A DNA stretch of 64,000 bases, taken from the NCBI GenBank assembly GCA_958009085.1, contig OY253683.1:496001-560000 (forward strand). Reading direction: 5' to 3'. The stretch comes from Protoeuglena noctilucae (lineage: Eukaryota). Below the pieces are notes generated by a model. It worked only from the letters and a program-made list of their open reading frames with translations, had not been told where the DNA came from and did not search any database. This document shows, in pieces, positions 3,698-25,982 of the stretch (positions are counted from its first letter, which is position 1; each line of letters starts with the position of its first letter). A program made the translations under genes and the position numbers.

Positions 3698-6215
3698 TCA
3701 GATGATGCCCTGGCGCTTCAGGTCGTCGAACGTCTTCTTGTTGTAGACGTTGCCCTCCGCGTCCTCATACTCCTCGTCCAGCTGCATCGCAACGGACACG
3801 AACACATCGCTTCAGTCATGGCAAGGCGTAGCGACCACTTGGAACATCTAGCACGACGACTTGGACAGCCCACGACACCCCTACCGCAGCCCGCAGCGAC
3901 AGGCCCTCGACACAGTCGCACACCACCATCGCCGGTCGTCACCTCTGGCACGAACCCGCCCGTGTTGCGCTGCTTGAGCGTCTCCCACAGCGCCCTGGCC
4001 TCGGCGATGCTCGTGATTTCGTAAAACTCCTTGGACATCCGGATGCCGAGGGCCTTGAGGCCGTTGACGTGCGTCCACTCGTTGAAGTGCGTCTCAAACG
4101 CCCGCCGGCCCCAGTAGGACGCCTCGCCGCAGATCTGCGAGAGCGCAACGCGAGCGCCGTTTCACTTCCCAGCGCCGGCCGGGGACCCTCCGCAGCGCTT
4201 CTGCCAAAGCGTAGCTCCCGCACCTCGCACTTATACTCGATGTTGAGGCCGTGGAGCTTGTACAGCCACACCGGCAGGGGCTTGCCGTCCCAACCCAGCG
4301 GGATCTTCCACGGGTTGTAGATGTCGTCCTCCTTGTCGCTGTCTTCCTTCAGCTCAACCTCCACCGCCCGCTGCTCGTCCTCCCGCTCCCTCTCCAGCTC
4401 CTCAAACGTCTGGACCTGCTTCTTCTCCGCGTAGTGCACCGTCGCCTCCAGCACGTTCGCCATCACCTCGCACAGCTTCATGGCCTTGACCTCCAGCAGC
4501 GCCGTCGCTCGGCAACGCGTCTCGCGCTTGGCCGCCTGTGCGGCCGTCAGCGCCGCGGCGGGCTCCCGGCCCTTCTGGAACAGGTTCTTCGGGAGCTCAG
4601 AAAGCGCGTGGCCGCGCGTCATCCACAGCCGCTCCGCCCGCTGCTCGACTGCGCGCAGGGGATGGTCCACACGCGTCGCACCGCGCCAGCCCCGGCGCCC
4701 ACCATGGCCCAGGCCGCGCCACCCGCGCCCTCACCCGTGCCCCCCGTCTTCAACCCCAAACGGTCTAGCGCCTCCTTGAGGCTCTCCGGCCCCAGCGCCA
4801 GCAGATCGCCCACACCCTCCAAGGAGTCGACATCCACCAAGGGCTCCACCTCGTCCCCCGCCACCCCCGCACCCCGGTCCTCCCACCCGTCCACCTCCCC
4901 CGCGTCCCACTGCCGCCCGAACTCCTCCTCCAGCTTGCGGTAGTTGCGCTCTGCGAGGACGGGCGCACGTGAAGGGTCATCATCATGGCACAGCGGTGTG
5001 AAATCCAAAGCAGGATCGCATCGCTGCACGCAGCTGATGACAGGAATATGTGCAATAGCAGTGCGCTGCGTGGGCGAGATGCGCACCCGCGTTCACGAGT
5101 GGCTGGGTGCGGGCGTAGAAGCTCTCCAGGTACGAGACCAGCTGTCGTAGGTAGCCGGCGTATGCGTCGGACATCTTCAGGCGGCGCGGGATGGCGGAGA
5201 AGTCGGAGAGGTCCTGTACGTACGTCGTGTAGTCGCACGCGCGGCCGAAGGGGGCGTTCTGGAACTGCAAGTGGAGGTCGTGGAGGTCGAAGGAACGGCC
5301 CCACCGCTCCTCTCCCGTGAACTCCACGCGGGGCTCCGTGATCAGCGTCAGGGGGTCGATGTCCCCGCCCTCGGAGAACTGCGGCGGCAGGGGAACGATC
5401 GCAGTGAGGCGATGGGAGGCACAGGGCACAGCTCGCCAGGGCCCCCAGGGCCATCGCAAGCCCCCGAGCTCTCGCACCTCGTACGTCGGGTGCCGCCGGT
5501 AGTAGTCCTGCACCTCGCGGAACAAGGACATGAACTTGGTCATGCGCTGCGCCGGCGTGACCCCGCTCAGGCTGGCCGCCTCGTCGCGACGTCCCCGGTC
5601 CTCGTCCGCGTAAATGCGGCGGAGCTTCGCCGAACGCTCCTGCGAGAGAGGCGCGGGATTTAGATAAAGTGTCCACCATGTCGGTGTGGGACGAAGGCGG
5701 GGTCGGCGCCAGCGCTCCGTGCCCATCCCCGCCGCACCTGCATGGCGTCCAGCAGCCCCCGGATCCGATGGTTCTGTAACAGCCGATCCTTGTGGCCCTC
5801 GGGCTCGTTCTTGAACTCGTCCACGATCTTGCGCTCCATCCGCTCCAAATCCTCGTGGAGGGCTGCGCGGAGAGGGGCCCAAACGCACGTCGGACATCAG
5901 GACCGCCCAAGCCGCGCCTCAGCGACGCCCACAAGCGATCTTGGCGTCCAGATCCACGAACATAGACACTGTAAGCCTCTCCGGAAACCAGAAAGTGACA
6001 AGGACGCCGCAGGAACGCATGAGTGCGACGGCTCGATGCCGAGCCCCTTCCCGTACCCCGTCCGCCCCCTCCGCGCGGCGATGGGGGCGCGGAGCGTGCA
6101 TCGCGACTGTAACATGCCACCTCGTCAGCATTCGGTCGATCCCTGGATCCAGGATGGTTAAGGAAGTGACGTAACGCGACCCACCTCGCGTCTGCTCAAG
6201 CAGCGTGTCCGCCAT
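3698..6215 (-). CDS. SF3A3: Splicing factor 3A subunit 3 (SAP61/Prp9)
   Basis: MADTLLEQTR|ALHEDLERMER..., FTGEERWGRSFDLHDLH, SAP-like LGPESLKEALDRLGLKTGG, IYNPWKIPLGWDGKPLPVWLYKLHGLNIEYKCE|ICG..YWGRRAFETHFNEW, C-terminal EEYEDAEGNVYNKKTFDDLKRQGII*. Confidence 0.96.
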
Positions 6216-6611: not shown

Positions 6612-7935
6612 ATGGCTGCCATGAAGGTGGGTGCAGCGCCGAGGAGCTTTCTTTGGCCAGCTCGAGGTGTTCTGGGCCCGTGTGCGCTTGCCCTGATGCG
6701 TGGGCCCTCCTGCGCTCTCACGACGCGGCTCGGCATGCTTTTTGCCACGTCGGTTTACATCGATGGTCAGGCACTGCGAGGGTGCCCGAGAAGGTCACGG
6801 CGTGGCCCCGAGAGGCCGCGCACAGAGCAAGATGCTCCGTCATCCACGGGACCCTCCTCGGCCAGCGCGTGGCTCGGGCCAATTGCCGGGCTGGCATGTC
6901 GCGCGTTTCCAAATGCCGCGCATGCGTGACCTGGGCCGCCCATCGCGGGCCTCCGGACGGCGAATTGGCCTGCCACGCGCCATGCAGGTCGTCGCGACCT
7001 GGAAGAGTCCGTATGCGCCGGAGTCCAGCCCGAATCCCAAGCCCGGCGGCAAGGCACCGAGCCGGGTCACGAAGCGGAAGCCTGGGGCGGACTATTGGAA
7101 GTACAGCGCGGACGGTGAGCATGGGGAGCTGGGCACCAGCCCTGGGCGACGGTGCCTGTCGCAAAGTTCGTGCCGCTGATCGTCCGCTGCCCCCCTGGTT
7201 TGCAGCCAAGCCTTACGAGATCACGGCCAAGTCCCCGGCGGACAACTTCTCCTACGGCCTGCCCACGTACGGCGCAGGATCGCCGAAGAACACCAACCGG
7301 TGGGGTGCGCCAGGTTGCTAGCACAGCAGAGAAAGCCCCTGCCGGTTCAGAATGTGTATTGTAAGGCCCTCCTGCGCAGGGGGTTCAACCCGTTCGGCGG
7401 GGGCGGGTCGGGGCGCAGGGGCGGTGGCGGCGGCGGGGGCGGTGGTGGCGGCGGTGGTGGTGGCGACAGCTTCATGCGCGGGCCGACGAACGCCCTGGCG
7501 ATGGCGCTCATCGTCGCGGGCCTGGTCGGGTACTTGCGCGCCAAGTCCAAGATGTCTCTGCTGTTTGGGATGGGCGCCGGGTTCGCCCTCATGTTTGCTG
7601 GGACGATGATGGCGGACGTGGGCGTGAAGGTGAGTGGGAAGGAGGACATCACCCGCAAAGCAGGCGCCCATATGCGCAGTCGCACGCATGGGGTGCACGC
7701 CAACGCTTGCGCATCGCAGCCCCGCTCCAAGGGGTCTGAGTTGACGCACATGACATGCACTGACCCCCGCTGTCGGCCGCAGGTCGGGCCCTTGACGGCG
7801 CTGGTGGTGGTGGCGGGCCTGGGGTACAAGATGTACGTGCGTTACACTCAGACGAAGGCGGTCATGCCGGCGGGGGCGCTGGCAGGGGTCTGCGGGGTGT
7901 ACGCTTTGGGTTACTTGGTGACGCTGTTTGCCTAG
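6612..7935 (+). CDS. TMEM14/FAX-family membrane protein with N-terminal extension (probably plastid); 5' exons uncertain
   Basis: Poly-Gly linker followed by ALIVAGLVGYLRAKSKMSLLFGMGAGFALM...|VGPLTALVVVAGLGYKMYVRYTQTKAVMPAGALAGVCGVYALGYLVTLFA*, matching the TMEM14 GY.KAKS..SL.AG and RF..T.K.MPAG motifs. Confidence 0.8.
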
Positions 7936-8254
7936 GGCCTGGAGCGCCGGGTGTTGGCTCGGAGATGACTGGACTAGACCACGATTGGGCGTGCACGGAT
8001 TGAAACGGCTTGTGAACCAGAGACAGGGTTTGAGACCGCACGGGCTGAGTGTCCGTTAGGCCAGCCGGTTCCGGATCGTGAAGCGTCGCTTCAAAAGTGC
8101 TTTGCATGCAGGTGGTCGAGAGCGCTGTCCAGCATCACGCGCCGAGCTACGAAGACGGCGTGACGCGACGTATGCCCCGCTAGGTCACTGGTCACATGAG
8201 ACGCAAGAATGGGAACTGAAGGGATTTCTAAAGGTAGACATGCAGTGGCCGGAC

Positions 8255-11200
8255 TCAGCTACGGGTCGTCATGGCGTTCTCCGTCACCACCGGGCCCAGG
8301 GCCAGCCAGTACAGGTCTGCGTGGGAGGTCGAGAGATGCGGGTGATCAGCAGGGTGCTAGCATCCAATGCTAGCACTCTGCAGTCAGCCTTTGACACTCT
8401 ACAGATACTGTGCCAGGCATGTATGGACGGCATCTCACCCACAATCGTGTACTGGACGTAGTAGATGGTCCCAGATTTCATCGCAGTCGGCGACCCTGGG
8501 ATCGTGTTGGCGGGGCATCCCTGCAGGGTCACCGCCGGCTGCTGCACCCCGACCTGGGACGCCGTCACGACGTACTTGCCGTTGGAAATCAGGATGCCGT
8601 TCACTGCAGGTGCAAGGAAGAGGGGCGTCACGTCAACAAGTGGCGCGAGTGCAGCTGTCGATCGCAAACCCCTTCACCCACGCGCGCATTGCATGTCGCA
8701 TTGCCGTGCACAAGGCAACCCCGCCTCCCTCGTCTCGCTCGCCTGTGGTGGATCCCGAGCCCCCGATGATTTGGATGGGGTCGCCGGTGGAGCTGAACTC
8801 GTACATCTGGTACGCCACCAGGCCCGGGCGGTCGGTGGTGATGAAGAAGTCGAAGTGGTCGACGTACGAGACGAGGAGGTTGGCGGAGGGAGTGGTCATC
8901 TGCGGGTGGGGGACAGCGGGGGCGGTGCGGTTGCGAGGGGTGCTGTGGGCGGCGACATGGCTTGCGGGGAGCGGCAGGAAGCTGCCGGGACTGGGCACTG
9001 GCACTCTGCTTCAGTATTATTGCAGCAAGGGCACTACCGAAAGCGAGGGGCGCAGAATGGGCGCAGGCCGCATGCCACACGGCACTCACGTTGGGCGTCA
9101 GTCCGGTCATGTCCAGCTTGAAGGTGAAGGCCAGGGGTTTGCCCTTGGCCTGCGCGACCGTCATGATGTCCGGCGCCGTGTTGATGACCTGCGTGCCGCC
9201 CTGCGTGAGCGTGGACGCCCACGCGACCCACGCGCCCGACTGGACGTTGGCGGTGTCGCCCCCCGCCGCCGCGCCCTGCTTGCAGTCCCGGGACACCGTG
9301 TACCCCGTCGGGATGGCCGTGGAGGACACGGGCGTGCAGTGGTCATCGTATCCGTTGAACGTGTAGTCGATGCCGTTGGTGGCGCCCACGTTGTCCGACG
9401 CGACGGCGTAGACCGTGAAGGTGGCGCAGGGGGACGGGGTCCCGGACGTGAAGCACTGCGTCGTCTGGGTCGTGGGGATGGGCGCCCGGCTGAAGACGCC
9501 CGTCAGCGACGGCGTGGCCTTGGCGGAGGTGTCCGTGTAGTACGACCCATCGGCAGGCGCGGACACGGCGGTGGCCGTGACGGCCCCCGGCTGGTTGGCG
9601 CTCTGCGTGGCGGGCACCAGCGGGTCGCACTGGTTCCAGCACGTCAGGGACTGCCCCTGGACGCACACGCTGGCGTTGGCCTGGACCTGCGCCACCGTCG
9701 GCTGCAGCCCGCAGCCGCAGTTGCGGAACACCACGTACTGGATGTTGGAGGGCTTGTCAGTGTCGAACTCGATGGAGAACTGCAGCGTGTTGGACAGCAG
9801 CTGCGACGACGTCGGCACCAGCGTCCCGGTCGTGCCTGTGGTCAGCCGCACCCCCGTGAAGCCCGGCGGGGTCACGTCGCGCGTGCGGACGCCCTGCAGC
9901 GCCGCGGAGACGCCCGAGCCCGCCTGGATGTAGATGAAGACGTCGTAGACGCGCGCGGGCGTCAGGCCCGTGATGGTGAAGCTCGGCTGCGGGGTGGCGG
10001 TCGTGGGGCTGTAGGTGGCGGTGCCAGCCACGTAGACAAGTGTCGCGGGCAGGAGCGAGGGGTTCTGGAACTGCGTGACGGTCGGCACCGCGACTGGGCC
10101 GTCGTTGATCTCCGTGCGGTTAGGAATGCGGATCGGGCGCAGGACGGCCACGTAGCTGAGGGCGTAGCTGGCGTTGAGGGGCACGATGGCGCCGGGCGTG
10201 ATGGTCATGGAGGGGCCGGCGATGGCCGTGGCCGTGGGGAAGCCGGGGGAGAAGGACAGGATGTTCGGGATGGTCAGCTGTGTGTAGGGCGTCCAGGACA
10301 GCATGCCCATCACCGTGCCCAAGTACGTGGGGCGGTCGGTGGCGCCGTAGTAGGGGAAGAACCCCAGGGCGGTGTCTGTCGCGAAGGGCTGCCCCAGGGT
10401 GCTGAAGCGCTCCACGCGCACCGCCACCTGCATGGTGCCCGTCGACAGCGGCTGGATGGACTGCGCCGTCGAGGTGCTGCCCACCATGCGCACCACGAAC
10501 TGCCCGGCCGTGCCCGCGTACGACGCCGTGGCGACGTAGTACCCCGACTTGCGGGCGATCGAGAGGAGCGTGCCCGTCGAGTCGACGAACAGCGCGTCCT
10601 GGGTGATGCTGATCTCCATCGTCACTTGGTACTGCGCCGGCGCGCCCCCGGCAGTCGGGTCGCCCAGCGGGGTGCCATCCGCCGCCACCAGGGATGCCGT
10701 GACATGGACCTGGAGCGTGGAGGGGTCCGGCGTCAGGGACAGGCCCTGGAAGAAGTACTGCTTGCCGCCCTGGATGGACTGCAGGAGCACCAGGCTGTCG
10801 TCCCCGCCGGGCCGGAGCAGGGCCAGCTGGGCACTCGTGCGGCCACCGCCCGTGACGAAGGCCGTGCCGTCCGTGCGGGGCAGGTACAGCGAGTCTGTGG
10901 TGGCCAGGCTGCTGAAGTAGGCCATCGTGGCGTCGAGGGACTGCAGCTGGTGCACTGTCAGGCCTGAGACGGGGGAGCCAGTGTAGTCCAGGGTGGATGT
11001 GACGCCCTTGGCGGCACGGCTCGCTGCGGCCAGCACGGCCACCTCCTGCAGGTAGGTTTGGCGGTACCCGGACCCGGCCACTGCGAGAGGAAGAAGGAGA
11101 ATGGGTCTGTCTCAGTAACACGCCTGTCTTAGCAACGCGCCTCTCATGCAACCATCTCATGCGCAACCACCTTGCTCCAGAGCTTGCCGACACGAAATGC

Positions 11201-14200
11201 TCACCCGGGTTCCAGTAGTTGCGGGCGCGCGCCAGGAGCAGCCAGTCGTCCTTGTCAAAGGTGCAGGAGCCGTCCACGTCCCCAGGCGTGGCCGCGTGGA
11301 CGGCCTGCGTGCACGTCGTCTGCGCCAGCGCGCGCCCTGCGTCCTGCGCCCAGTGCTGCGCGCCGTGTTCCGCCAGCATCGCCGGCAGGAACGTTGGATC
11401 GAAGTCGACTTCAGACAAGAGCAGGCGGCGGGACGCGGAGACGACGATGGTGCCTGCTGCCGCGACGGCTGGGTACGAGGACGTCGTCTTAGGCACCGCC
11501 TGCGTCAGCGTGTCGACCGTGACCGTCACGCTGCTGCTGCCCAGCGCCTGGGCCACGAAGCTCAGCGTCGCCAGCTGCAGCGCCGCCCCTGGCCCCGCCG
11601 ACGTGCCCTGGAGGGTCAGCGAGACCTGACCCGCCACCGAGGTGGTGTCGCAGGACAGCAGCAGGGACCCGGCGTCAGGACCAGCCACGCACTGGGACAC
11701 CGCGACGGCGCTGCCGGTGAACATGACCCGCGCCGTGAGCTTCTGCACCGCCAGGGTGGGCGAGGCCAGCACCACCGGGACCGTCAGCACGTCGCCCACC
11801 TTGACGGAGGCCGCCGTGGTCACGGACGCGCTCGTGGGCGGGACCTGGAACTGCGGGCCGTACGCCACGCCCAGGTCCACGTCGCGGTCGCTGGGCGTCA
11901 GGTTGGCGTAGACCTGGGCGGTGGCCGACAGGGGCGCGCGGGTCCCGCACGCGTACCGGGCCGTGAGCGTGACGGTCTGCGTCCCCGAGGAGCTGGCTAG
12001 GAGCGTCACGTCGCCGTACTGCTTGCCGTCCGTCGCCGTGGCGATGGCGATCTGGGAGGGCTGGCTGGACGTGAAGGAAAGCAGCTGCGGCACCGGGAGC
12101 ACGTTGTTCGCGGCGCGGGCGTACCCCAGCACTTGCGTGTACGTCTGGTAGTTGGCCGTGTCCAGGGTCACGGTCGCCTCCAGCGTTGCCTGCGAGTTGA
12201 CGGCCCCGGTGAGGGTGCTCTGGCAGAGACCGTAGAGCGGGCCGGCTGCCGCGGCCGTCGCCGTGCACCACTGTGACACGGACAGGGTGAGGGACGCGAC
12301 CCCCGCAGGCGACGCATCCGACACCGACACAGCCACGGTCGCCAGCTGCGTCCCCCCGAGCGTCGCGGTCACGATGAGCGTGCCTGCCTGCGTGGGCTGC
12401 AGGCGGTTGGAGAGCCCCGCCACGCCCAGGTTCGCCAGCAAAGCCCCTCCAGCGGTCGGCGTGACGGTCAGCGTGGCCTGGGCGGTGACGTCGTAGCGGG
12501 TGCTGTCTGTCAGTTGCGCCTTGGCCCACACGGTTGCCTGCTGGTACGCCGTGGCGCAGTCGATTTTGTGGAGGGCCAGGGGCTGCGTGACGAACGCGGC
12601 GTCGCTCGTGACGTCCCCGGACGCGAGCGGCCCCACCGAGTAGTCCCGCAGCACCAGGGTGCCCGCCTGGAGCATCACCACCTGCACCGTCACCGTCTGC
12701 TGGGCCCCCGCTAAGAGCCCCGTCACAGTCACTTGGATCTTGGCCGACCCGACCCCCGTGACGTTGTCTCCAAGCAGCGGGGTCACCACCGTGTACCCCG
12801 ACGCGTCCTGGGACAGCGAGATGAGCGTCGCCCCGGACGTGATGGCAAACGTCGCTCGGGAGTCCTTGCTCAAGTCGAGCGTGGACCCGTCGCTGAGGCT
12901 CAGGAGCACCCGCAGCCGCGCCTTGGTATCCACTGAAATGGGCGCGGCGGCCGCGGGGTCGCCGGTGCGCGTCAGGCGCGTGACGGTGCGGGTGCCTGGG
13001 CCGGGGTAGTCCCGGAGGTCCAAGGTGGCGATGCCCTGCACGACTGCGGGCACGATGCGCGCCGGGGCGATGCCCGTAATGACCTGGGCCCCGCAGACGG
13101 CGTACGTGCCGCGGATGTAATAGCCGCACGCGGCCGAGGCGCCGTAGGTGGTGGAGAGGGTGGCGGTGGGCACCGACCCCGCGTTGACGGTGAAGGTGGA
13201 AGAGTCCAGCGACTGGAAGGTCGTGCTGGGCGTGACGTCCACGCGCGTACCGTCTGCGAGGACCAGGTACGCGCGGAGGAAGACCTGCTGCCCTGACTGG
13301 GTCAGTACCTGCCGGGGCGTGACTGACACAGCGGTGGGTGCGTCGGGGGAGAAGAGGCCGTTGGGGGGCCCGGTGGCGAGGGACGCGGAGGTGTAGGCGA
13401 CGACTTCGAGGGAGGAGAGGCACTCGGTCTGGGCGACGGTGGACACGGTGGCGGTCCCGCTGACGGCCGCGCTGGCACCCGAGGCGGTGATGGTGACGGT
13501 GTCGGGGCCGCCCATGCCCTGCAGGAGGCTGCCGCCCTGCACGGCCACGATGGACGAATCGGAAGACGCGAGGGTCACGCGGGAGGTGATGTCGACGTCG
13601 GCGACGGTGGCGAGCGGGGCGCCGTTGGCGGCGGCGGCCGTGAAGTCCGCTGAGACGCGGACGAGGGTGGCCTGGTACGTTGTGGAGGTGCAGGCGATGT
13701 TGGCGGTGGGGTAGATGCTCGGGAGGCTCGGGTCGGCGAGGTCGATGATCTTGTTGAGCTTCGTGCGGGAGGGTGTGACGTGGATGGCCGTCGGGAAGTA
13801 GACGGCCACCTGCACCGTGGCGCTGAGGCCGGACGCGGTGATCGTGAAGGGCACCGCCGCGCTCCCGGCCGTGTTGGTCGAGGCCACCGTCGCTGTGCAC
13901 CCTGAGAGAGAGAGCACCGACGCGTTGCCGGAGGCGACGGAGCAGGTGGGAGAGGAGGCGGGGGCGTCCGCGACGGTCGGATCGGAGCTGACCACGACCG
14001 CCTGGAGCGTGGTGGTGACGCTCGTGCCGTCCAGCACGACCGTGTTGACCAGGGCAGGGCGAGAGGCCCAGGCGAGGAGGCCCACGGGGCCGGCGGCGCG
14101 CACCAGCAGCTTGAACTGCGTCTGCGCGCCGCCCTGCGAGTCGTTGATCTGGCCCGTGGGCCGCGCGGCGACCGACTGCCCCGCGGACGTGAGGCCCACG

Positions 14201-17200
14201 AGGGTGACGGGGTTGGCCGCGTCGCCGGCACGCAGGGCGTTGGCGTAGGTGCCCGAGGCGACGGTCGAGAGCACCTGCATCTGGAAGGTCATGAGCAGGA
14301 GCGCCGAACCGGTCGTGTCGGACGCGGTGGCGGTTGAGGCGCGGCCGTAGGTGTTGAATGCAAGGTAGCCCGAGGACGCCTGGCTGACCACGAAGGGCTG
14401 CTGCCAGAGCGCCGAATTGACGGCGAAGGCCCCGGTGAAGGCGAGCTTGGAGGAGTCGTAGTAGACCGGGAAGGACCACACGAGGAGGCTGGCGCCGCCC
14501 GAGTCCGCCGTGACGGTGACCGTGAAGCGGGCGCCGGGGGCCAGGTACGTGGTGGGCATCGCGAGCGTGATGCCCGCGCCGGTCGGGGTCGTGTATTGCG
14601 GCGGCGGCTGCAGCGTCACGGCCAGCGCGGGCGACCGCACCGCGGTGCTGGTGTTGCCATTGTAGAGGACGCGGACGTTCGCCGTGGTGACGATGGCCGA
14701 GGCTCCCGCCGCGGGGAACGCGGCGAGGGGCACGGTCAGCGTGCACGTCCCGAGGCCGGTGGTCGGGTCGAAGGTTGAGGTCGCCGCATCGCAGGCGTCG
14801 GTGCGTGCGCCCGTGGCGCTGTTGGCCAGCTCGACTGAGGGGGTGCCGAGCCCCGCCGTGCCCACGACGACCTGCCCGTCGGCGTCCTTGAGCAGGTAGC
14901 GGAAGCTGAGCACGGGGGCGTCGGGGGACGCGGTCGCCACCCGCAGCACCGCGCTCATCGTCGATGCCGGCTGCGTCGCCACGGCGCCCGACACCGTCAT
15001 GGCCTGCTGGGTCGTCTGGTCGAGCACCGGCGACTTGGTCAGCGGCCCGCCGCCCGTGTACACCTCCAGCGACACCGCTGTCCCCGGGGTGGACCCCTCC
15101 AGCAGCCCAAAGGACCGGCTGCGGGTGGCCGTGGCGACGCCCGTGGTGCTGCCCAGGGCGGTGCCAGGCGACCCCGCGGCCACGTTGATGACCGGCCGCA
15201 GCGCCGAGGTGAGGAAGGCGTCCGTGCAGGTGGAGAGGTCGATGGAGGCGAACGTGGAGGCGTTGCCGACTTGCGTGGCCGCCACGGCCAGCACCGAGGG
15301 GTTGCGGTTCGGGGTGGGCTGGACCGTGTCCTGGCTGATGACGTAGAGCATGTACGACTGGGACGCCTGCACGCCGCAGCCCTGGGTGGTGACCCACTGG
15401 TTGGGCGTGGGCAGCGAGAGGATGCCCGAGAAGGGCGTGGAGCTGCCCGTGCTGTCCTGCAGGTTCCACAGCTGCGTGGGCGACGGCGCGGCGGCCGTCG
15501 AGGGCAGCAGCATCCACTTGGCCGTCGCAACCTTGTTGGCCTGCACCGACACGGCGTAGCCCGACGGGGCCGTGACCGTGGCCTTGGCCTGGAGCACGGG
15601 CGGCGTCAGGTCGAGCGTGGAGAAGGCCAGGATGGGGCAGTTATCCGTGGAGATTACGGCCGAGTTGGGTGGGCTCGCCTTGTCCTGCACCAGCACGTAC
15701 AGGCGGTAGGCGGTGGCCGACGTGAGGCCGGTGAGCGCGATCGTGCCCCCGAAAGTGCCGTAGTACTCCCCCGCCTGGTTGCCGATCTCCACGCGGTTGT
15801 CGCACGTGGCTCCCGTGCAGGGAGTCACGGTGCACACCGTGCCGGCCGCGTTGACGCTGCCGGCGACGGTGGCGGTGGCCCCGGTGGCGTCCTGCCCCGC
15901 CTGGATCTGAGCCGCCGTGGGGGCGCTGGCCGACTGGAGCGACAGGACATACCACAGCGACGTGGGCTTGTTCGCCGTGAAGTTCCAGGTGAACTTGGTG
16001 TCGGTGACCGTTACGTCGCCGGCGATGCACGAGGGGTCCAGGACCGGGGCGGCGATGTCGAGGGTCGACGTGGGCACCTGCTGCACCGTCGTGGCCATGT
16101 TGGGTGGACTGGCGTTGTCCTGGGCCGTGACGATCCAGATGAACTGGTTGGCGGCGTCCAGGCTGGTGCGGTTGATGTCCACAGAGGGACCTGCGGACGT
16201 GCGCAGGGCCGTGCCAGTGGCAACGTAGCTGGCCCCGTCCACCACGGTCGTCGGGGCCGCCGTGCCCTGCGCCACGGCCATGACCATGGCGGGGGTGACG
16301 CCCGTGGTGACCGTGGCGCACCCGCGGACCAGGACCCAAAACACCGACGCGGGTTTGCTGACGGTGACCGTCAGCGTCAGGGCCGTGGCCTGCCGCGCCG
16401 TGGCGGCGGCCGAGAAGGTCGGCGGGGTCAGGTCCGGCGTCGTGACCTGCCAGCACGTGGTGGTCGGCTGCACGTTGGGCGTGGGCGTGACCAGGTCCTG
16501 GGCGTACATGTAGATGGTGTACGTGGTGGCCTGGGCCGTGGGGCTCACGGTGGTCAGCACGGGCTGGTTGACCACGTTCACGCTGATGATGCCCGCCTGG
16601 GTCAGGGGGTCCGCCGTCGGGCGCTGCTGCGTGCGCACTTGGTCCACCGTCAGCGTGTAGGTCGAGCAGAGCGCGGCCCCGCCGATGACCATGTAAATGA
16701 CCTTGCCCGTCTTGTCCAGCTCGATGCTCATGTCGAAGCTGGTGGTGCCCATGTTGACCGCCTTGTACTGCACGAACGCAGGCGGCGTATTGCTGACCGT
16801 GCACACAGTGACCTGGGCCGGCGGGTCGGGGCGGCGGTTGGGCGTCGGCGTGGCGCGGTCCTGCGCCCCGAAGAAGGCGTCGTAGCACGTGGCGGGGTTG
16901 AGGCCCGTGACGGACAGGGCCGTGGCCGTGGCGGCCTGGTTGATGGGGAACGAGCCGTACTGCACGGCTGCCGTGCCCGAGATCAGGTCGTTGGTGGTCG
17001 GGGTGAAGGAGTTGGAGGGGTACATGGCCCAGTACACGGTGCCCGTCTTGCTCATCTGCACCGTGAAGGCCACGGTCGTGCGCTGGACGTCCGTCGACGC
17101 AGGCGTGCTGTTGATGAAGGCGGGCGGGGTCGTGTCCAGCGTCGTGACGGGCGTGACCTGGGAGAAGAGCGACGGAGGATTGTGAGTGCGGGGGCCATGT

Positions 17201-20200
17201 AGCGCCGGAGGGGCTGCCTGCGCATCAGCTGGCACTACACGGCCTGTGCACCTGACACTACAGGCGACGCTCAAGTCACCTGGAGGCCCTGGCGGGCGCC
17301 CGAGTCCGGGTTCTGAGACTGGGAGTACACCTGGTAGAGCGTCGCGTCGGTCACGGTGGCTCCGTTCTGGCCGTTGGCCACCGTGACGGTGATGGCCTGG
17401 TTGCGCTGGATCACTAGGGTCACCCCCGCGGCCATCTCGACCCAGGGCCCGGTCACGCACGTCTGCGCCAAAGCCCGTTTGGTCCTCCCCGCAAGCACCG
17501 GGCCCTCGCCGCAGTCCCCAGCACCCTGCCAGGCTGCGCCGCCACCCCTGGCCATCATCAGACGCCGCGCTGTGGCCGTGGGCGTCGCCGCAGACGTGGT
17601 CTTGGGTGTAGATGCAGGCGTGGGCATGGACACTGCAGCTGGCGTCGATGCCGGAGTAGCTGCGGACGTCGCTTTTGGCGTCGACGTCGGCGTGGGCGTT
17701 GCAGCAGCCGTGGAGGCTGGCGTCGCTGTGCCGGTCGGCGTGGCAGCGGACGTAGCCTTGGGCGTCGACGTAGACGTGGGCGTCGGCGTCGCAGCAGCGG
17801 TGGGCGTAGGGGTGGCAGCAGACGTGGCCTTGGGCGTAGGCGTCGGCGTGGGTGTCGCAGCGGTGGGCGTAGGAGTGGCAGCGGACGTAGTTTTGGGTGT
17901 CGCCGTCGACGTCGAAGTGGGCGTCGCAGCAGCCGTGGAGGCTGGCGTCGCTGTGCCGGTCGGCGTGGCGGCCGACGGGGTTGCAGTGGGCGCGGACACC
18001 GGCGTGGCACCCGCAGTCGATTTGGGAGTCGGGGTGGCCGTCCCGGACGACGTGGCAGCCGGCGTGGCAGTAGCAGCCGGGGTGGCAGTGCCGGCCGGGG
18101 TGGCGGCCGAGGTCGGGACGGGCGTGGAGGTCGCGGTGGGCTGGGACGCCCCCGGGAAGTCGAAGGGCCCCCGGATGGTGGGGAAGGGGCAGATGGGGTT
18201 GGCGGCCAGCAGCTCCGCGCACCGCTGGTTCATCTGGGCCTGGGTGACGACGGGGGTGGACCCGGCCGCCTGGTTGTTGGGCTGAACGATCCAGTAGCAG
18301 AGGATGCCGACGCTCTCGACGGCGATGTTGACCGTGAAGGACGTGGCCTGCACGTCCTTGGGCGTGACCGTGTAGGCGGGCACCAGGAGGCTGTCATCGG
18401 CCGTCTGCATCGACAGCGTGACGGCCGAGGACTGCAGCGCCCCGGAGGTGTTGGCCGCGGTGACGAAGACGCGGTAGGGGGTGTTGGGGAGCAGCGCGGT
18501 GGCCGAGGCGCTGCACAGCTGCGTGTTGCACGCCGGGCTAACGGTAGCCTGCGCCACCTGCTGCCCCGTCGCCGAGAAGGACCCCGCCGCCACGACCCCG
18601 CCGGGCGCGACGGCCTGGATCGACAGGCCGGCCGCCGTCTGGACGCTCGTGGCCGCCATGGTCGTCCCCGCCACGAACGCAAACAGCGTCTCCTTGTACC
18701 TCGCCACGGGCTCCCCCAGGACCACGGCGTAGTACACCGTGCCGTCCTTGTCGAGGGTGGCGGAGAGCGTGAAGGACGTGTAGCCGACGGAGTTGATGGA
18801 GGGGGAGACGAGGAACTTGGGGGGAACCATGTCGGGTCCCGGGGGAGGCGGAGGGGGCGGGGGCGGAGGGTACGTGAAGGGCGGCGGGGGCGGCGAGGGG
18901 GGCGGCGACGGCGGCGGGGGCGGGGACGGCGGAGGGGGCGGCGGCGACGGCGGAGGGGGTGGCGGGGACGGCGGGGGCGGCGCGGGGCCCACGAGAGTGA
19001 AGGTCGCGGTGCGGAGGGACCCCGCGAGGCGATCGTCTTTGGACACAGGAACGGCCATGAAGACGTACGAGACGCCCGGCTTGAGCCCGCCGCACCGGGA
19101 GCACGCCCGGCGGAGGCTATCTGGGGCGGGTAGGGTGCGGCGAGGGCGATTGGTGTGGAGCAGCACCAGCATTTGGAAAGGCCCGATTGCCCTTTCAACC
19201 CATGGAACTGTCGCAGGTCGCCCTGGGCCGACACCCTGGCTCGTGTCTCACCTCGGTAGATGGGGCTGCTTGGGCTGTGGGCCCTCATCGTTTGGAGGAT
19301 GTCTATGCACTCGGCGGTCGCAGGCGCATCTGGGACGCCGATCACCGAGGTCATGTCTAGCGTGGGTCCGGCCCACCCCAGGGCAGGCACGGGGTTCAGG
19401 GCGCCCCCCGCGGGGCCCCACAGCGTGAGGACGTGCAGCACGCGCTCCTGCGGGCACGTCGTTCGCAGATGATCATGCTTAGCTCAGGTCAAGAGAAAAA
19501 GATAAAGAACGAGCTTTACGACACAGGCTGGCACGAGACATGAAAGACAAGTGTGGTTTCCACAGAAGGGGCTGTGCACGCAACCCCGGTGTTGCATGAA
19601 TGACCCGCACCACCCCACAGCCGAGTGGCACCTGGGAGATGGGCGCCTCGCCGCACAGCACGGCCTTGCTCCCTGTGCCGCCCAGGCGGAATGCAGCGAG
19701 GTCCTTTCCAGAGATGCCCGGCCTCGCGGCGTTGACCTGGTTCGCTGGGAACACGGCCCACCGCACGCGGGCCTCGTGCTGGTTCGGGGTCACGTAAGCC
19801 ACTGACACTCCCACGTCCGCACTCCACCCCGTGGTGCTGAGCACCTGGGGGGTCGTGGTGATCTGCGGGGGCGGGGCAGTGTGATGGTTCTGGGATTTGG
19901 GCTGGGCCGGGTAGGATGTGGGAGAAGGCACGCCAGCGGGTGCAGTGCAGGTGCTACAAACGGAGGCGTGCGGACCAGGTGCAGCAGCTCCGTTTTCACC
20001 TTGGGAGGGGTCAGGAAGAGCGCCAAGAGGAGGGCGAGAATGGCGAGAAGCAGAAGGAGCAGCAGTAACAGCCAGATGCACCAGTTGCGAGGGTCGAAGA
20101 GAGCGTCGATGTGGGACTTGCGGCGGTAGTCCGCGAGGGCGGGGATCCAGAGGTTGTACGAGTGCACGAGGACGGCCGGGCGACGCTTGCCGTCCGTGGC

Positions 20201-21140
20201 GAGGCCCGGGGAGGCCCCGTCGGTGCCGACGCCCCGGTCGGTGCGCGGGGTCGCAGGCACGCTCGGCAGGCGGGCTCCCTGGACGAGCGCCGTCGCGGGC
20301 GTGGGTGCAGCGCGCCTCTGCGAAGGAAGGGCACGATGCGGTGGGCACGCGGGGCTCTAGCGCAGCCATGCTGTGCTCCAGCCCACTCCCCGAGCCTCAC
20401 CCGCAGCTCCCCGAGGTCCTGCTTCTGCCTCTCGATCTCCATATCCTTGGCGCGCAGCTCCTGTTTCAAACGCTCCACCTCGGCGTCCTTCCGCGCCACC
20501 TCCCGCTCGATCTTCTCCGTGGTCTCCCGGATCACCTCCCGCGTGATCTCCGGCCGCCGGAGGGCGTCCAGCTCGGCGCCCAGCGGCGCTGCCGGCGGCG
20601 CGCGCGCGAGGGCATCGTTGCGGGACTCGGCGTCACGGAGCCTCTGCCGCAACGACCGGGTCTCCGCCTCCAGACGGTCGATGTCCTCCTGCAGGGCCGC
20701 GCGCTCGCGCTCCGCCTCTCTCCGCGCGCGCTCCAGCCGCTCCTCGAGCTCCCGCTCCCGCGCAGCGTCGGCAGGGTTCCTGCGGCGCGACGCCGTCTCG
20801 AGCGCGCGGCGAAGCTGGGTGCGCGCGCGCTGGAGGAGGTCCCGCTGGAAGTTTTTGACGCGCCGCTCGATGTCCTCTTGCAGATACGACGTGCTGCGGG
20901 CGCGGTCGCGGTGGCAAGCTTTGAAGAGGGCTGCCCGGCCTCATTTCACACCCCCCGGCGCGCACAGAGCGTCGGGCCACGCGCACGCCAGCCCATCTCC
21001 TACCTGGCTGCATCAACATCCCAGCTTTGCCCCAGCGCGGGCGAACCGTATGGACTCGGGTCCCTGCCAGACCCCTGCCGCGAAGCATAGAGGCTGTTGT
21101 CCACCATACGCGGCCTGCGAGGGGCGAGGGGCATAGCCAT
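8255..21140 (-). CDS. Giant (~3,840 aa) type II membrane / cell-surface protein: coiled coil, TM, FnIII-like repeats, extensin- and mucin-like stalks, TMEM132-like cohesin+Ig block, second cohesin, dockerin-like motif, further FnIII-like modules
   Basis: Eleven phase-compatible exons: 21140-21004, 20893-20401, 20278-19976, 19862-19632, 19447-19252, 19120-17280, 17157-11205, 11080-9090, 8899-8743, 8603-8439, 8316-8255. They sum to 11,529 nt (divisible by 3) and end in TGA. One hydrophobic segment (WCIWLLLLLLLLLAILALLLALFL, ~20012-20083); no C-terminal TM seen. Confidence 0.8.
17570..18140 (-). repeat. Coding tandem repeat encoding a Thr/Ala/Pro mucin-like stalk (units like ATSAATPTPT / TATPASTAAATP)
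   Basis: Degenerate 15-30 nt units; the ~44-nt block GCAGCAGCCGTGGAGGCTGGCGTCGCTGTGCCGGTCGGCGTGGC occurs at ~17701 and ~17926. Confidence 0.85.
18836..18988 (-). repeat. Coding Ser-Pro(n) extensin-like (HRGP) repeat
   Basis: PAPPPPSPPPPPPSPPPPPPSPPPPPSPPPSPPPPPFTYPPPPPPPPPPG in ORF 17271..19172. Confidence 0.9.
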
Positions 21141-23960: not shown

Positions 23961-25982
23961 TCATGCTGCCGTCCCACCCAGCTCTCCGCCACTGCGGCTA
24001 GCTCGCCCAACCCCTGCACCCCACACTGGACCAGCAACTCGCCCAGCTGTCGTGCGGACCACGCCTCCTCCCGCCCCCAACCTGGGTCCCCACATGGGTC
24101 CCCAGTGACCCCCCCCCGATGCCATGGCGTCACGCCGAATCTCCTCAAACAAGGACGTCAGGGCCAGCAGGGCCGCGCAGGCGTGCTGGGCCTCCACCAA
24201 CGCCCACAGCACTTGTGCTCTGCTCCTGCTGTCGTTGCCCTCGCCCGTGCCCAGCTCTCCAGCATTCCCGAGCACGATCTCCCGCACGCGGCCGTGGTCG
24301 ACCTGGCCAAACCTCCAATCAAGGCCCCGGTGGGTGTCGGTGTCTTGCCCCAGGGCGTGGCTGCACATCCGTGACGCCTGCCCCGCTGCCGCTGCATCGT
24401 CTGTACCGCAGGTGTTGCGGCACCTGTCCCTCGCGTCCCCCTCCGCCGGGCACAGTTCGGCCAGCCGAGCCACGGCCTGCTCCGCCGCGTGCTGTACCAT
24501 GAGCCCCGCCTCACGCAAGTCCATCCCGGCATTGGCCGCCACATTCCGCTGGACCAGCGCCTGAAACTCCCAGGGCTCTGACAGCGCCCGGCAATCCTCA
24601 ATCGCCTCCCTCGCTCCCTGCATGGGATGAGCCAACGGCGCAGGGTCTGATACACCAATACCAGAGGGCTTGGCTGAGTTGAACTGGCACTCAGCCTGCG
24701 TGCCTTATGCCTCGTGTACAACACTCACGCGATACTCTTAGGCCAGGTGGTGCAGGACGTAGCGGATATTGAAAGCCGTGACCCAGTTGTGGTTGATGGA
24801 CAGCGTAGCGGCGGCGTTGTCGACCGTGTGGTGCCAGGCACTGGGGACAAACAGGGCGTCTCCAGGAAGCTGCGTCACGTCGAGCGTGAACTGACTCGCG
24901 GCCTCCAAGCACGGAAACCGCTTCAAGTCCCACCCTGGACTGTCAAGGTCCACGTCACCGCAGTCGCAGGGTGCCTCGCTGACCCCGCCTTCCTCCAGTG
25001 CCGCCTCCACATCCCCCGCACGCAACCGCCGTGGCCCAGAGTCGGGGCCCTTCCTCGTTGCGCGTGCCACGGCTGCCCGTAGGGCCACGCCGCGCGGGCA
25101 TGCTCCCCGGTGTTTGGGGGCAAACCCGGGCGCGAGCTGCCCGTGGGCGTCCACGAGGAGCCACGAGAGCGAGGGGTGCGCCATGCGCCACCGCTTGACG
25201 CCCGTGACGTTGGCCGACCAGCTGTTGGAGCGCAGCACGTCTGAATGGAGCGGGGTGCCCGTGCCGCGGGGCCCTAGGTACACGAACCGATAGTCGGCCA
25301 CTCGATGCCCCCGGTCATCAGCAGCGCGACGGGGGCACAGGAGGTAGGCGTTGAGCCAGTCGTGTTGGAAGTAGCACGGGAGCCCGTAGATTGGGGCGCC
25401 GGGATGGGAGCGCGCCGACTCGGCCGCCAGGTGCCAGTCCTGCGCATCAGGTGCCGCTGTGTGAAGAGGGTGAGTAATAGAGAACCTAAGAGAGATTCCT
25501 TACTACGGAGCACTCGTGCAGGGTAAGGGTAGGTAGCGCACCTTGACGTAAAGCAGCGGGTACGTGGTGGGCTCCCTCTCTGCCCCTTTCCACCAGCGGG
25601 CGTACTCCTCGAGTTGCATCTCATTGCACTCCCCTCCCAGGCCGCCTGGCCCGGTGCAGACCGTCACGGGGACGACGGAGCGGCCGAAGGAAGCGGCGAG
25701 GGCGTCCATGGCCACGCCCGGGATGGTGACATCGTCGCGATCAGCTCCCCATCGCTGCGGCTGACTGGCGTCCGTCCATGCCCGGGAGCACGGCCAGGGG
25801 CTCGCCACGCCCTTCAGGAGCACGGGATGGTTGCCGTCGAGGTAGCGAAGGAAGTCTTGGTACGATGCATTGGCGGGGAGCTCCTCCAACTCGCTTGGTG
25901 CTTGGAGGAACTGGAAGTCGGGATCATCGCGCCCGCCTCCCTCTGCCTGCATGGCAGGGGCTCGCTTTGAGGTTCTGCGCAT
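23961..25982 (-). CDS. JMJD4: JmjC 2-oxoglutarate/Fe oxygenase, JMJD4/JMJ20-like; in-frame TAA at 24738-24740 (possible nonsense allele, error or readthrough)
   Basis: LYVK|DWHL, YFQHDWLN, DYRFVYLGPRGTGTPLHSDVLRSNSWSANVTGVKRW (HxD), PGDALFVPSAWHHTVDN (distal His), SINHNW; downstream exon EAIEDCR...QRNVAANAGMD. Start at 25982 or 25952. Confidence 0.85.

Follow-up and report, generated by a model that had tools for sequence, protein, structure and literature searches.

A gene on the minus strand of a 64,000-nucleotide stretch from the green alga Protoeuglena noctilucae (contig OY253683.1, positions 496,001 to 560,000; this whole stretch is the window, and all coordinates below count from its first base) encodes a block of domains that resembles the core of the animal TMEM132 ectodomain. 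We think it likely that the region is the central adhesion cassette of a giant type II membrane glycoprotein and that the block is homologous to the TMEM132 ectodomain core. TMEM132 proteins combine two fold classes, cohesin and bacterial-type immunoglobulin (Ig) (Sanchez-Pulido & Ponting 2017, PMC6030884), and an earlier note on this DNA had pointed to a TMEM132-like series of motifs. All of the strings it quoted are present in one minus-strand frame and in the order it gave (14091-12538): GPVGLL... at 14091-14056, VAVYFP... at 13809-13777, CTSTTYQ... at 13692-13654, VDITSRV at 13596-13576, RQVLTQ... at 13314-13285 and, as a supposed second copy, LHKIDC... at 12573-12538.

Comparison with animal TMEM132 was made through Pfam models and the published description. 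On the 693-residue block, PF16070 (Ig_TMEM132_4th, corresponding to BIG1) matches the Ig domain at 13789-14079 with 33.0 bits (expectation value (E) 5.7e-8), above its curated cut-off of 27; with a 700-residue piece or the whole exon as query the score is 31.1 or 27.7 bits, respectively. Directly after it, PF23486 (Ig_TMEM132_5th, BIG2) gives a weak match at 13435-13695 (16.8-18.8 bits depending on the query, best E 0.0019; cut-off 28). These are the only two Pfam families matched by the whole main exon of the gene, and the Pfam Big_2 model has no match on the window block. A third Ig-like domain follows at 13015-13377, where alignment to the family places the TMEM132 sixth domain (BIG3). The claimed TMEM132 likeness is borne out by these curated profiles, which run across consecutive domains: fourth then fifth in the window, and Cohesin, fourth, fifth and sixth in that order across the family. 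Judged by these models, the Ig domains are homologous to those of TMEM132.

The block is also conserved far beyond this one alga. A 693-position profile that combined the block of the window (15093-13015) with its counterparts in two algal relatives was searched against 1.84 billion representative proteins. It returned 866 matches at E<=1e-3, of which 462 reached E<=1e-10 and 153 reached E<=1e-30; the best 150 of the 866 were listed. The majority of these 150 match from about position 30 to 689 of the 693 in a single stretch, which argues that the cassette, from the region ahead of the cohesin to the third Ig domain, travels as one unit. The window itself matches the family profile at positions 4-697 with 576.9 bits. 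By profile similarity, then, the window protein is not singular and is part of a large algal and haptophyte family. Named green-algal carriers are Cymbomonas tetramitiformis (seven proteins), Pedinophyceae sp. YPF-701, Bryopsis sp., Edaphochlamys debaryana and Mesostigma viride, and named haptophyte carriers are Prymnesium parvum, Pavlovales sp. CCMP2436 and Diacronema lutheri. Several carry the automatic UniRef name 'Transmembrane protein family 132 fourth domain-containing protein'. In a language-model search, the nearest named cluster (score 0.96) is 86% eukaryotic, with haptophyte the most frequent label; neighbours of the region up to and including the cohesin all score below 0.9 and serve as leads only.

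Pfam scans of relatives recover the domain order of the cassette. Ig_TMEM132_4th was matched in 21 of 32 relatives at E<=1e-3, 31 of 35 at E<=0.01 and 29 of 31 family members at E<=1 (best E 2.7e-13); the corresponding counts are 3, 3 and 5 for Ig_TMEM132_5th (best E 2.4e-6), 0, 2 and 4 for Ig_TMEM132_6th (PF23487; best E 8.6e-6) and 9, 4 and 2 for Cohesin (PF00963). The fifth-domain model exceeds its cut-off in relatives P0028 (35.8 bits) and P0037 (28.1 bits), and the best sixth-domain score in the family is 26.1 bits against a cut-off of 27.8. P0037 has Cohesin at residues 45-140, the fourth domain at 190-288 and the fifth at 306-393; P0054 has the same three at 63-186, 227-320 and 361-454; and P0098 has the fourth at 332-428 and the sixth at 548-645. 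The Pfam Cohesin model, which is a general one, matches relatives where the third domain of TMEM132 would lie. In some relatives the block is joined to other modules: NHL or teneurin-NHL repeats in P0011 from Cymbomonas, an ephrin-receptor-like cysteine-rich domain in P0033 and a PAN domain in P0032.

Only three residues, N350, C384 and C399, are invariant in an alignment of 31 sequences, and all three fall within the fourth-domain match. The two cysteines lie 15 residues apart within the first Ig domain; a disulphide is predicted inside BIG1 of TMEM132 (PMC6030884). The family consensus contains 'LVNTA.L.G', 'VW.P..V....D..L', 'YQ.T' and 'DVT.LV.F', and so resembles, in form at least, the putative animal motifs listed in the earlier note. 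Among solved structures, the family profile matches cohesins at profile positions 156-265 (4ums, E 0.015; 5nrk, 0.12; 5nrm, 0.15) and the Ig-like domains of Leptospira Lig (8gyr, E 0.018) at positions 452-507. The same pair of fold classes is given for TMEM132 in PMC6030884. A search of the solved structures with the single sequence gave nothing relevant, and the profile search gave no TMEM132 entry.

The first part of the block, at 14602-15093, is a conserved region ahead of the cohesin, in the position of the TMEM132 'CR'; it is family-wide, with profile matches mostly beginning at positions 2-45. The first cohesin-like domain lies at 14098-14601. The cohesin-like stretch proposed in the earlier note stands in part: it aligns with the Pfam Cohesin stretch of relatives and, through the family profile, with solved cohesins, but the window alone is not recognized by the Pfam model. 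A second cohesin-like domain at 11440-11826 matches Pfam Cohesin from model position 4 to 139 of 139 with 13.2 bits (E 0.1), below the cut-off, and P0015 and P0028 carry above-cut-off Cohesin matches at the same relative place. About 50 residues further on, at 11206-11283, is the dockerin-like calcium-loop motif GDVDGSCTFDKDDW followed by a helix, at a place where relatives have a dockerin. The pattern GD[VIL][DN]G occurs in 39 of 174 collected sequences, mostly as GDVNGD.xFD..D after the second cohesin; for the pattern as such, a rough estimate puts the chance expectation at ~2 occurrences. When 91-residue segments of eight relatives were compared with Pfam Dockerin_1 (PF00404), six matched at E<=0.1, two of them above the cut-off. 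Type I dockerins have two calcium-binding loop-helix repeats; the window and P0005, its closest full-length relative, have a single GDVDG.C.FD..DD loop. By these matches, cohesins and a dockerin occur together in single chains of relatives, and of the dockerin the window would retain at most a degenerate half. In a 4,778-residue protein of Prymnesium parvum (P0007), three near-identical dockerin-like sites lie 1,385 residues apart (1755, 3140 and 4525) and the fourth-domain model matches three stretches; because of this double threefold pattern, the entire cassette seems to be triplicated within that protein.

The protein is predicted to be anchored by one N-terminal helix after a long hydrophilic N terminus. 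P0005 is a spliced relative of 3,576 residues, identical in three sources (contigs of 12-15 kilobases), and is collinear with window positions 20859-8440 (31-64% identity per piece, 49% across the main exon). It carries in a single frame a charged helical region, NWCVWLLLLLLLLLIGLAVLLCLLL and then the same ectodomain, ending like the window model. The window counterpart of its helix (P0005 residues 230-248) is WCIWLLLLLLLLLAILALLLALFL at 20012-20083, a candidate signal anchor with arginines on the N-terminal side. A type II topology is supported because the P0005 layout is collinear and because the RNA-supported 3' exons encode no C-terminal anchor. The inverted topology that the earlier note had proposed agrees with all of this, and with an N-terminal anchor in four further green-algal relatives.

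In a hydrophobicity scan of 154 matched proteins, a crude survey that includes many fragments, the only strong helix lay ahead of the block in 10 proteins and behind it in 16; one protein had helices on both sides of the block and 127 had none. The N-anchored proteins include P0005, P0009 from Pedinophyceae, P0025 from Bryopsis, P0132 from Edaphochlamys, and P0150; those that start with a methionine (P0009, P0025, P0132) have hydrophilic N termini. Anchored at the C-terminal side are P0052 from Mesostigma and several proteins of 4,600-7,800 residues, and P0109 has a helix immediately after the block, a TMEM132-like layout. Because relatives are anchored at either end, the cassette thus appears to be used in both orientations, with the 'inverted' one typical of the green-algal subgroup to which the window belongs. 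Four giant relatives of ~5,900-6,100 residues (P0062, P0077, P0094 and P0097), encoded in uninterrupted frames on metagenome contigs of 0.3-1.2 megabases, have two or three dockerin-like sites each; three have a near-C-terminal helix and P0097 has none.

The gene is spliced and expressed. Three RNA libraries from one study contain 62, 27 and 22% of the words sampled from 11000-20900. Their contigs cover the gene partially, and match the TMEM132-like region without differences (for example 12865-13476, 13468-13859 and 14104-14501). Such libraries can include DNA, so unspliced contigs could be DNA and transcription is read from the spliced ones. Four of the minus-strand introns in the gene are seen in RNA contigs: a contig from run X2 omits the 122 bases of a GT..AG intron at 17158-17279, fixing the acceptor at 17158/17157, and a single 1,563-base X2 contig spans introns 8900-9089, 8604-8742 and 8317-8438, the second of which has GC..AG ends confirmed by the sequence.

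From the collinearity of P0005 in tblastn (20859-8440) and the RNA-supported stop codon, the whole gene extends approximately over 8255-20940 on the minus strand. The window is 63-75% G+C throughout, and 70-72% near the TMEM132-like block. The block lies in a stop-free frame at 18393-10123, the coding portion of which is a single main exon at 17157-11206 (5,952 bases, 1,984 codons). The donor GTGAGC at 11204 closes this exon, and the next begins at 11080, after a pyrimidine-rich CAG at 11081; this intron is absent from the RNA contigs and was placed from its GT..AG ends, the reading frame and homology to P0005. Four 3' exons (11080-9090, 8899-8743, 8603-8439 and 8316-8255) join to give a stop codon at 8257-8255 and a C terminus ...VQYTIVDLYWLALGPVVTENAMTTRS, with no hydrophobic anchor at its end. 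At the other end of the gene, 20452-20940 encodes a charged helical region, coiled-coil-like by eye and probably cytoplasmic, that matches residues 1-145 of P0005 and no significant Pfam family. An exon at 17280-19100, the upstream border of which is approximate, encodes a PPSPP proline-rich run, two beta-sandwich repeats and a Thr/Pro/Ala-rich linker. The main exon starts with five more repeats, counted by eye (15094-17157; D-x-T-P-P-x-F type), which remain unclassified and match no family in a Pfam scan. The run and the linker are encoded by degenerate tandem repeats (18840-18988 and 17500-18110). Contigs from the DNA run break at 17730-17940, which suggests that this repeat stretch may be hard to assemble or variable in length.

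Beyond the third Ig-like domain, the earlier note had proposed a partial second copy of the block. Its string is indeed there, in a motif (12484-12573) that lies within further Ig-like domains and is conserved in relatives including P0004 and P0002; as a copy it fails, since a self-profile, a BLASTP comparison (to the fifth-domain segment, E 0.83) and the family profile (-5.3 bits, conditional E 0.45) were all non-significant.

Taken together, these features suggest a protein of ~3,600-3,800 residues from a GC-rich marine green alga that would, from the membrane outward, consist of a cytoplasmic coiled-coil-like N terminus, one transmembrane helix, a proline-rich rod and a Thr/Pro-rich spacer; then about nine unclassified beta-sandwich repeats and the block of conserved region, cohesin and three bacterial-type Ig domains; and finally further Ig-like domains, a second cohesin-like domain, a dockerin-like calcium loop and an anchor-free C-terminal part. 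The proline-rich run (18988-18840) and the Thr/Pro-rich linker could act as rods or spacers and the beta-sandwich repeats could lengthen the chain, so that the protein projects from the cell surface. The cohesin faces may bind protein partners; candidates are dockerin-type calcium loops within the family, such as the dockerin-like module of the same or a neighbouring molecule. The conserved cytoplasmic region would then link the membrane to extracellular material or to other cells, and the protein might build or hold a matrix or mediate adhesion.

To place the window protein within its family we calculated a FastTree phylogeny of 101 blocks, excluding duplicates and matches covering fewer than 560 profile positions and using a midpoint root solely to draw the tree. 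The window branches with P0004 and P0005 (support 99), next with P0095 and next with the Pedinophyceae protein. This group falls within a 15-row clade (support 96) that also contains the Bryopsis, Edaphochlamys and Mesostigma proteins; Cymbomonas and the named haptophytes are placed outside it. Its frequency in green algae and haptophytes makes it probable that the cassette predates animals and their nearest kin. We regard the block as most plausibly an ancient surface module of eukaryotes that is employed in either membrane orientation; it does not belong to the animal TMEM132 family in the strict sense. We tentatively go one step further, to a proposal that we hold to be possible though short of probable: the TMEM132 core would not be a holozoan invention but an old cassette of green algae (chlorophytes and the streptophyte Mesostigma), haptophytes and holozoans, and the 'orphan' cohesin of animals may derive from a calcium-dependent cohesin-dockerin lock that served in the assembly of cell coverings. 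The ancestry in such a lock is suggested because a second cohesin and a dockerin still accompany the cassette in algae. The TMEM132 cohesin has no known dockerin partner (PMC6030884).

Several observations weigh against a TMEM132-related adhesion cassette in a type II protein. In the window, the fifth-domain match is under its cut-off, Ig_TMEM132_6th has no match so that the position of the third Ig domain comes from the family alignment, Pfam Cohesin does not match the first cohesin-like domain, and the score of the second is sub-threshold. The TMEM132 second-domain, third (cohesin)-domain, N-terminal and C-terminal models match none of the 31 members at E<=1, TMEM132D_N and TMEM132D_C match neither the window nor any of 64 Pfam-scanned relatives (from the best 150 of 866), and Dockerin_1 matches neither the window nor the segments of P0005 and P0009. 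The likeness comes from Pfam models, the folds are predicted from sequence, and the function, partner binding and adhesion, is wholly inferred. The transmembrane calls are crude, with 127 of the 154 proteins, many of them fragments, lacking a helix. In the gene model, the 5' exon borders are approximate and the start codon was not located; the reconstruction by homology is ambiguous, one of its four solutions being clearly wrong, and one RNA-library contig is unspliced across 20029-20744, with no intron there.

The negative results for the second- and third-domain models would fit a generic surface protein made of Big_2-like Ig domains and cohesin-like beta sandwiches, in which the resemblance to TMEM132 is one of fold and composition and there is no specific cassette. 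The Ig domains of TMEM132 are themselves distant relatives of Big_2 (PMC6030884), bacterial Big_2 clusters (0.79-0.87) stand beside a chordate TMEM132 cluster (0.85) in the language-model search, and a word-based search with the 31-sequence alignment returned a Big_2 protein only; of two other word-based searches, one yielded a Cymbomonas protein and the other the frame of the window itself plus one relative. We nonetheless regard this explanation as quite improbable, because it is the TMEM132 fourth-domain model that passes its curated cut-off on the window and not Big_2, because relatives match three TMEM132 Ig models in the correct order behind a cohesin, and because the entire 693-position block is conserved as a unit. 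A chance frame or a pseudogene has next to no probability: in DNA of ~70% G+C, long frames without stops arise often in either strand, but relatives span the frame (54%, ~49% and 27-29% identity), RNA contigs are spliced and a curated Pfam model matches, so that this explanation is refuted.

Two further alternatives accept the cassette and dispute its anchoring or its history. The helix could be only an export signal anchor, cleaved or uncleaved, with the ectodomain released to wall, scale layer or medium and working as a matrix component, not as a membrane receptor. Proline-rich and Thr/Pro-rich stretches such as those present here are typical of algal wall glycoproteins, and cohesin and dockerin-like parts in one chain would permit self-assembly. 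In P0005, P0009, P0025 and P0132, however, the helix comes after ~180-430 residues of conserved cytoplasmic sequence, which a mere export signal would hardly explain, and we think a shed matrix protein less probable than a membrane-anchored one, though a serious minority view. Somewhat less probable again, and in our judgement unlikely, is lateral transfer from a virus, bacterium or endosymbiont into green algae and haptophytes, or into holozoans, in place of early eukaryotic descent. Both algal groups live in marine habitats and have viruses in common. The distribution of named carriers is patchy, comprising green algae, haptophytes and, from PMC6030884, holozoans. Cohesin, dockerin and Big_2 domains are chiefly bacterial. 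Yet the named green-lineage proteins, except those of Cymbomonas, fall in the one supported 15-row clade and the named haptophytes in other groups, the pattern expected from vertical descent with lineage expansions. Scans of viral contigs (44 pattern matches) and prokaryote genomes (24) found no relative; this is a narrow and weak test, with patterns taken from three close algal sequences. Our preferred reading remains a membrane-anchored, TMEM132-related cassette of old eukaryotic descent.

If this reading holds, the origin of the cassette moves well beyond animals and their closest relatives; failing vertical descent, a transfer between distant eukaryotes would have been revealed. The cassette would also work in either membrane orientation, and dockerin-like calcium loops would be the type of ligand to seek in animals should the cohesin-dockerin ancestry be true. 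Tractable algae, relatives of Chlamydomonas such as Edaphochlamys, offer a setting in which cohesin ligands could be tested, and for algal biology the matches define a family of giant surface proteins that is large, unstudied and expressed in the marine environment. What was known before is the automatic fourth-domain labelling of database entries; new here are the wider phyletic range, the opposite anchoring and the association with a second cohesin and a dockerin. Judged from search listings, no publication deals with TMEM132-type proteins of algae or other protists, and among the matches listed PF16070 appears in the TMEM132 paper and a coral study.

Other genes flank the giant gene in the window. 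A convergent plus-strand gene at ~7100-8016 has GT..AG introns at ~7113-7205 and ~7627-7781 and a poly-A end at 8016, which leaves ~240 bases between it and the giant gene's stop codon. On the minus strand, ~3700-5918 contains a gene for splicing factor SF3A3/Prp9 (Pfam SF3A3, E 4.3e-13; SF3a60_Prp9_C, E 2.2e-11), five minus-strand introns of which are crossed by RNA contigs, and 24741-25499 contains a piece of a JmjC/cupin-8 hydroxylase-type gene (Cupin_8, E 3.6e-12; JmjC, E 3.8e-8).

Among known systems, the closest parallel is with animal TMEM132A-E (PMC6030884). In each, the extracellular part contains a conserved region, then a cohesin, then three bacterial-type Ig domains in tandem. The fourth, fifth and sixth Pfam models are matched in that order in the algal family, and the cysteine pair in its first Ig domain is a putative counterpart of the pair predicted to form the BIG1 disulphide. 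The text of PMC6030884 dates the TMEM132 architecture to early holozoans and mentions two of its domains 'among more diverse eukaryotes'. TMEM132 has a signal peptide and a C-terminal helix, whereas the algal protein would have an N-terminal signal anchor in a type II arrangement. The algal protein shows no TMEM132D_N, second-domain, third-domain or TMEM132D_C match and no TMEM132 cytoplasmic tail; that tail carries PP1 and WIRS motifs in animals, and the window protein has no C-terminal helix to precede one. The algal block also occupies the middle of a chain three to four times as long as TMEM132, and further Ig-like domains, a second cohesin and a dockerin-like element come after it.

In this embedding the alga recalls the lefftyrins, coherins and hedglings, choanoflagellate and sponge cadherins that contain the same five-domain block (PMC6030884): in both cases the block is one cassette within a far larger multidomain surface protein. 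They differ in lineage and in that no classical cadherin repeats occur in the window protein or the scanned relatives, where P0018 has a 'Cadherin-like' PF12733 domain only. Proteins of the same family, matching over the whole block with E 4e-29 or better, include Cymbomonas CYMTET_54389, 17257, 15425 and 13431 and Prymnesium parvum AB1Y20_021478. The closest full-length algal relatives share the type II layout, and some others, such as Mesostigma P0052, are anchored near the C terminus; the algal and haptophyte 'TMEM132 fourth domain-containing' entries are unstudied and owe their UniRef names to the Pfam domain only.

Two bacterial systems share individual parts. Cellulosome scaffoldins and anchoring proteins (for example 4ums and 5nrk) resemble the family in their cohesins and in the Pfam-recognized dockerins of relatives, with their GDVNGDG loop. 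They differ in that the algal protein is eukaryotic, has no attached enzymes and combines cohesin and dockerin in the same chain, and in that the window loop amounts to one degenerate repeat, which is unrecognized by Pfam and whose binding is putative. Leptospira LigA and LigB, intimin and invasin, all Big_2 adhesins, share the fold class of the three Ig domains (8gyr, E 0.018); the window protein differs from them in being unmatched by the Big_2 model and matched instead by the models specific to TMEM132.

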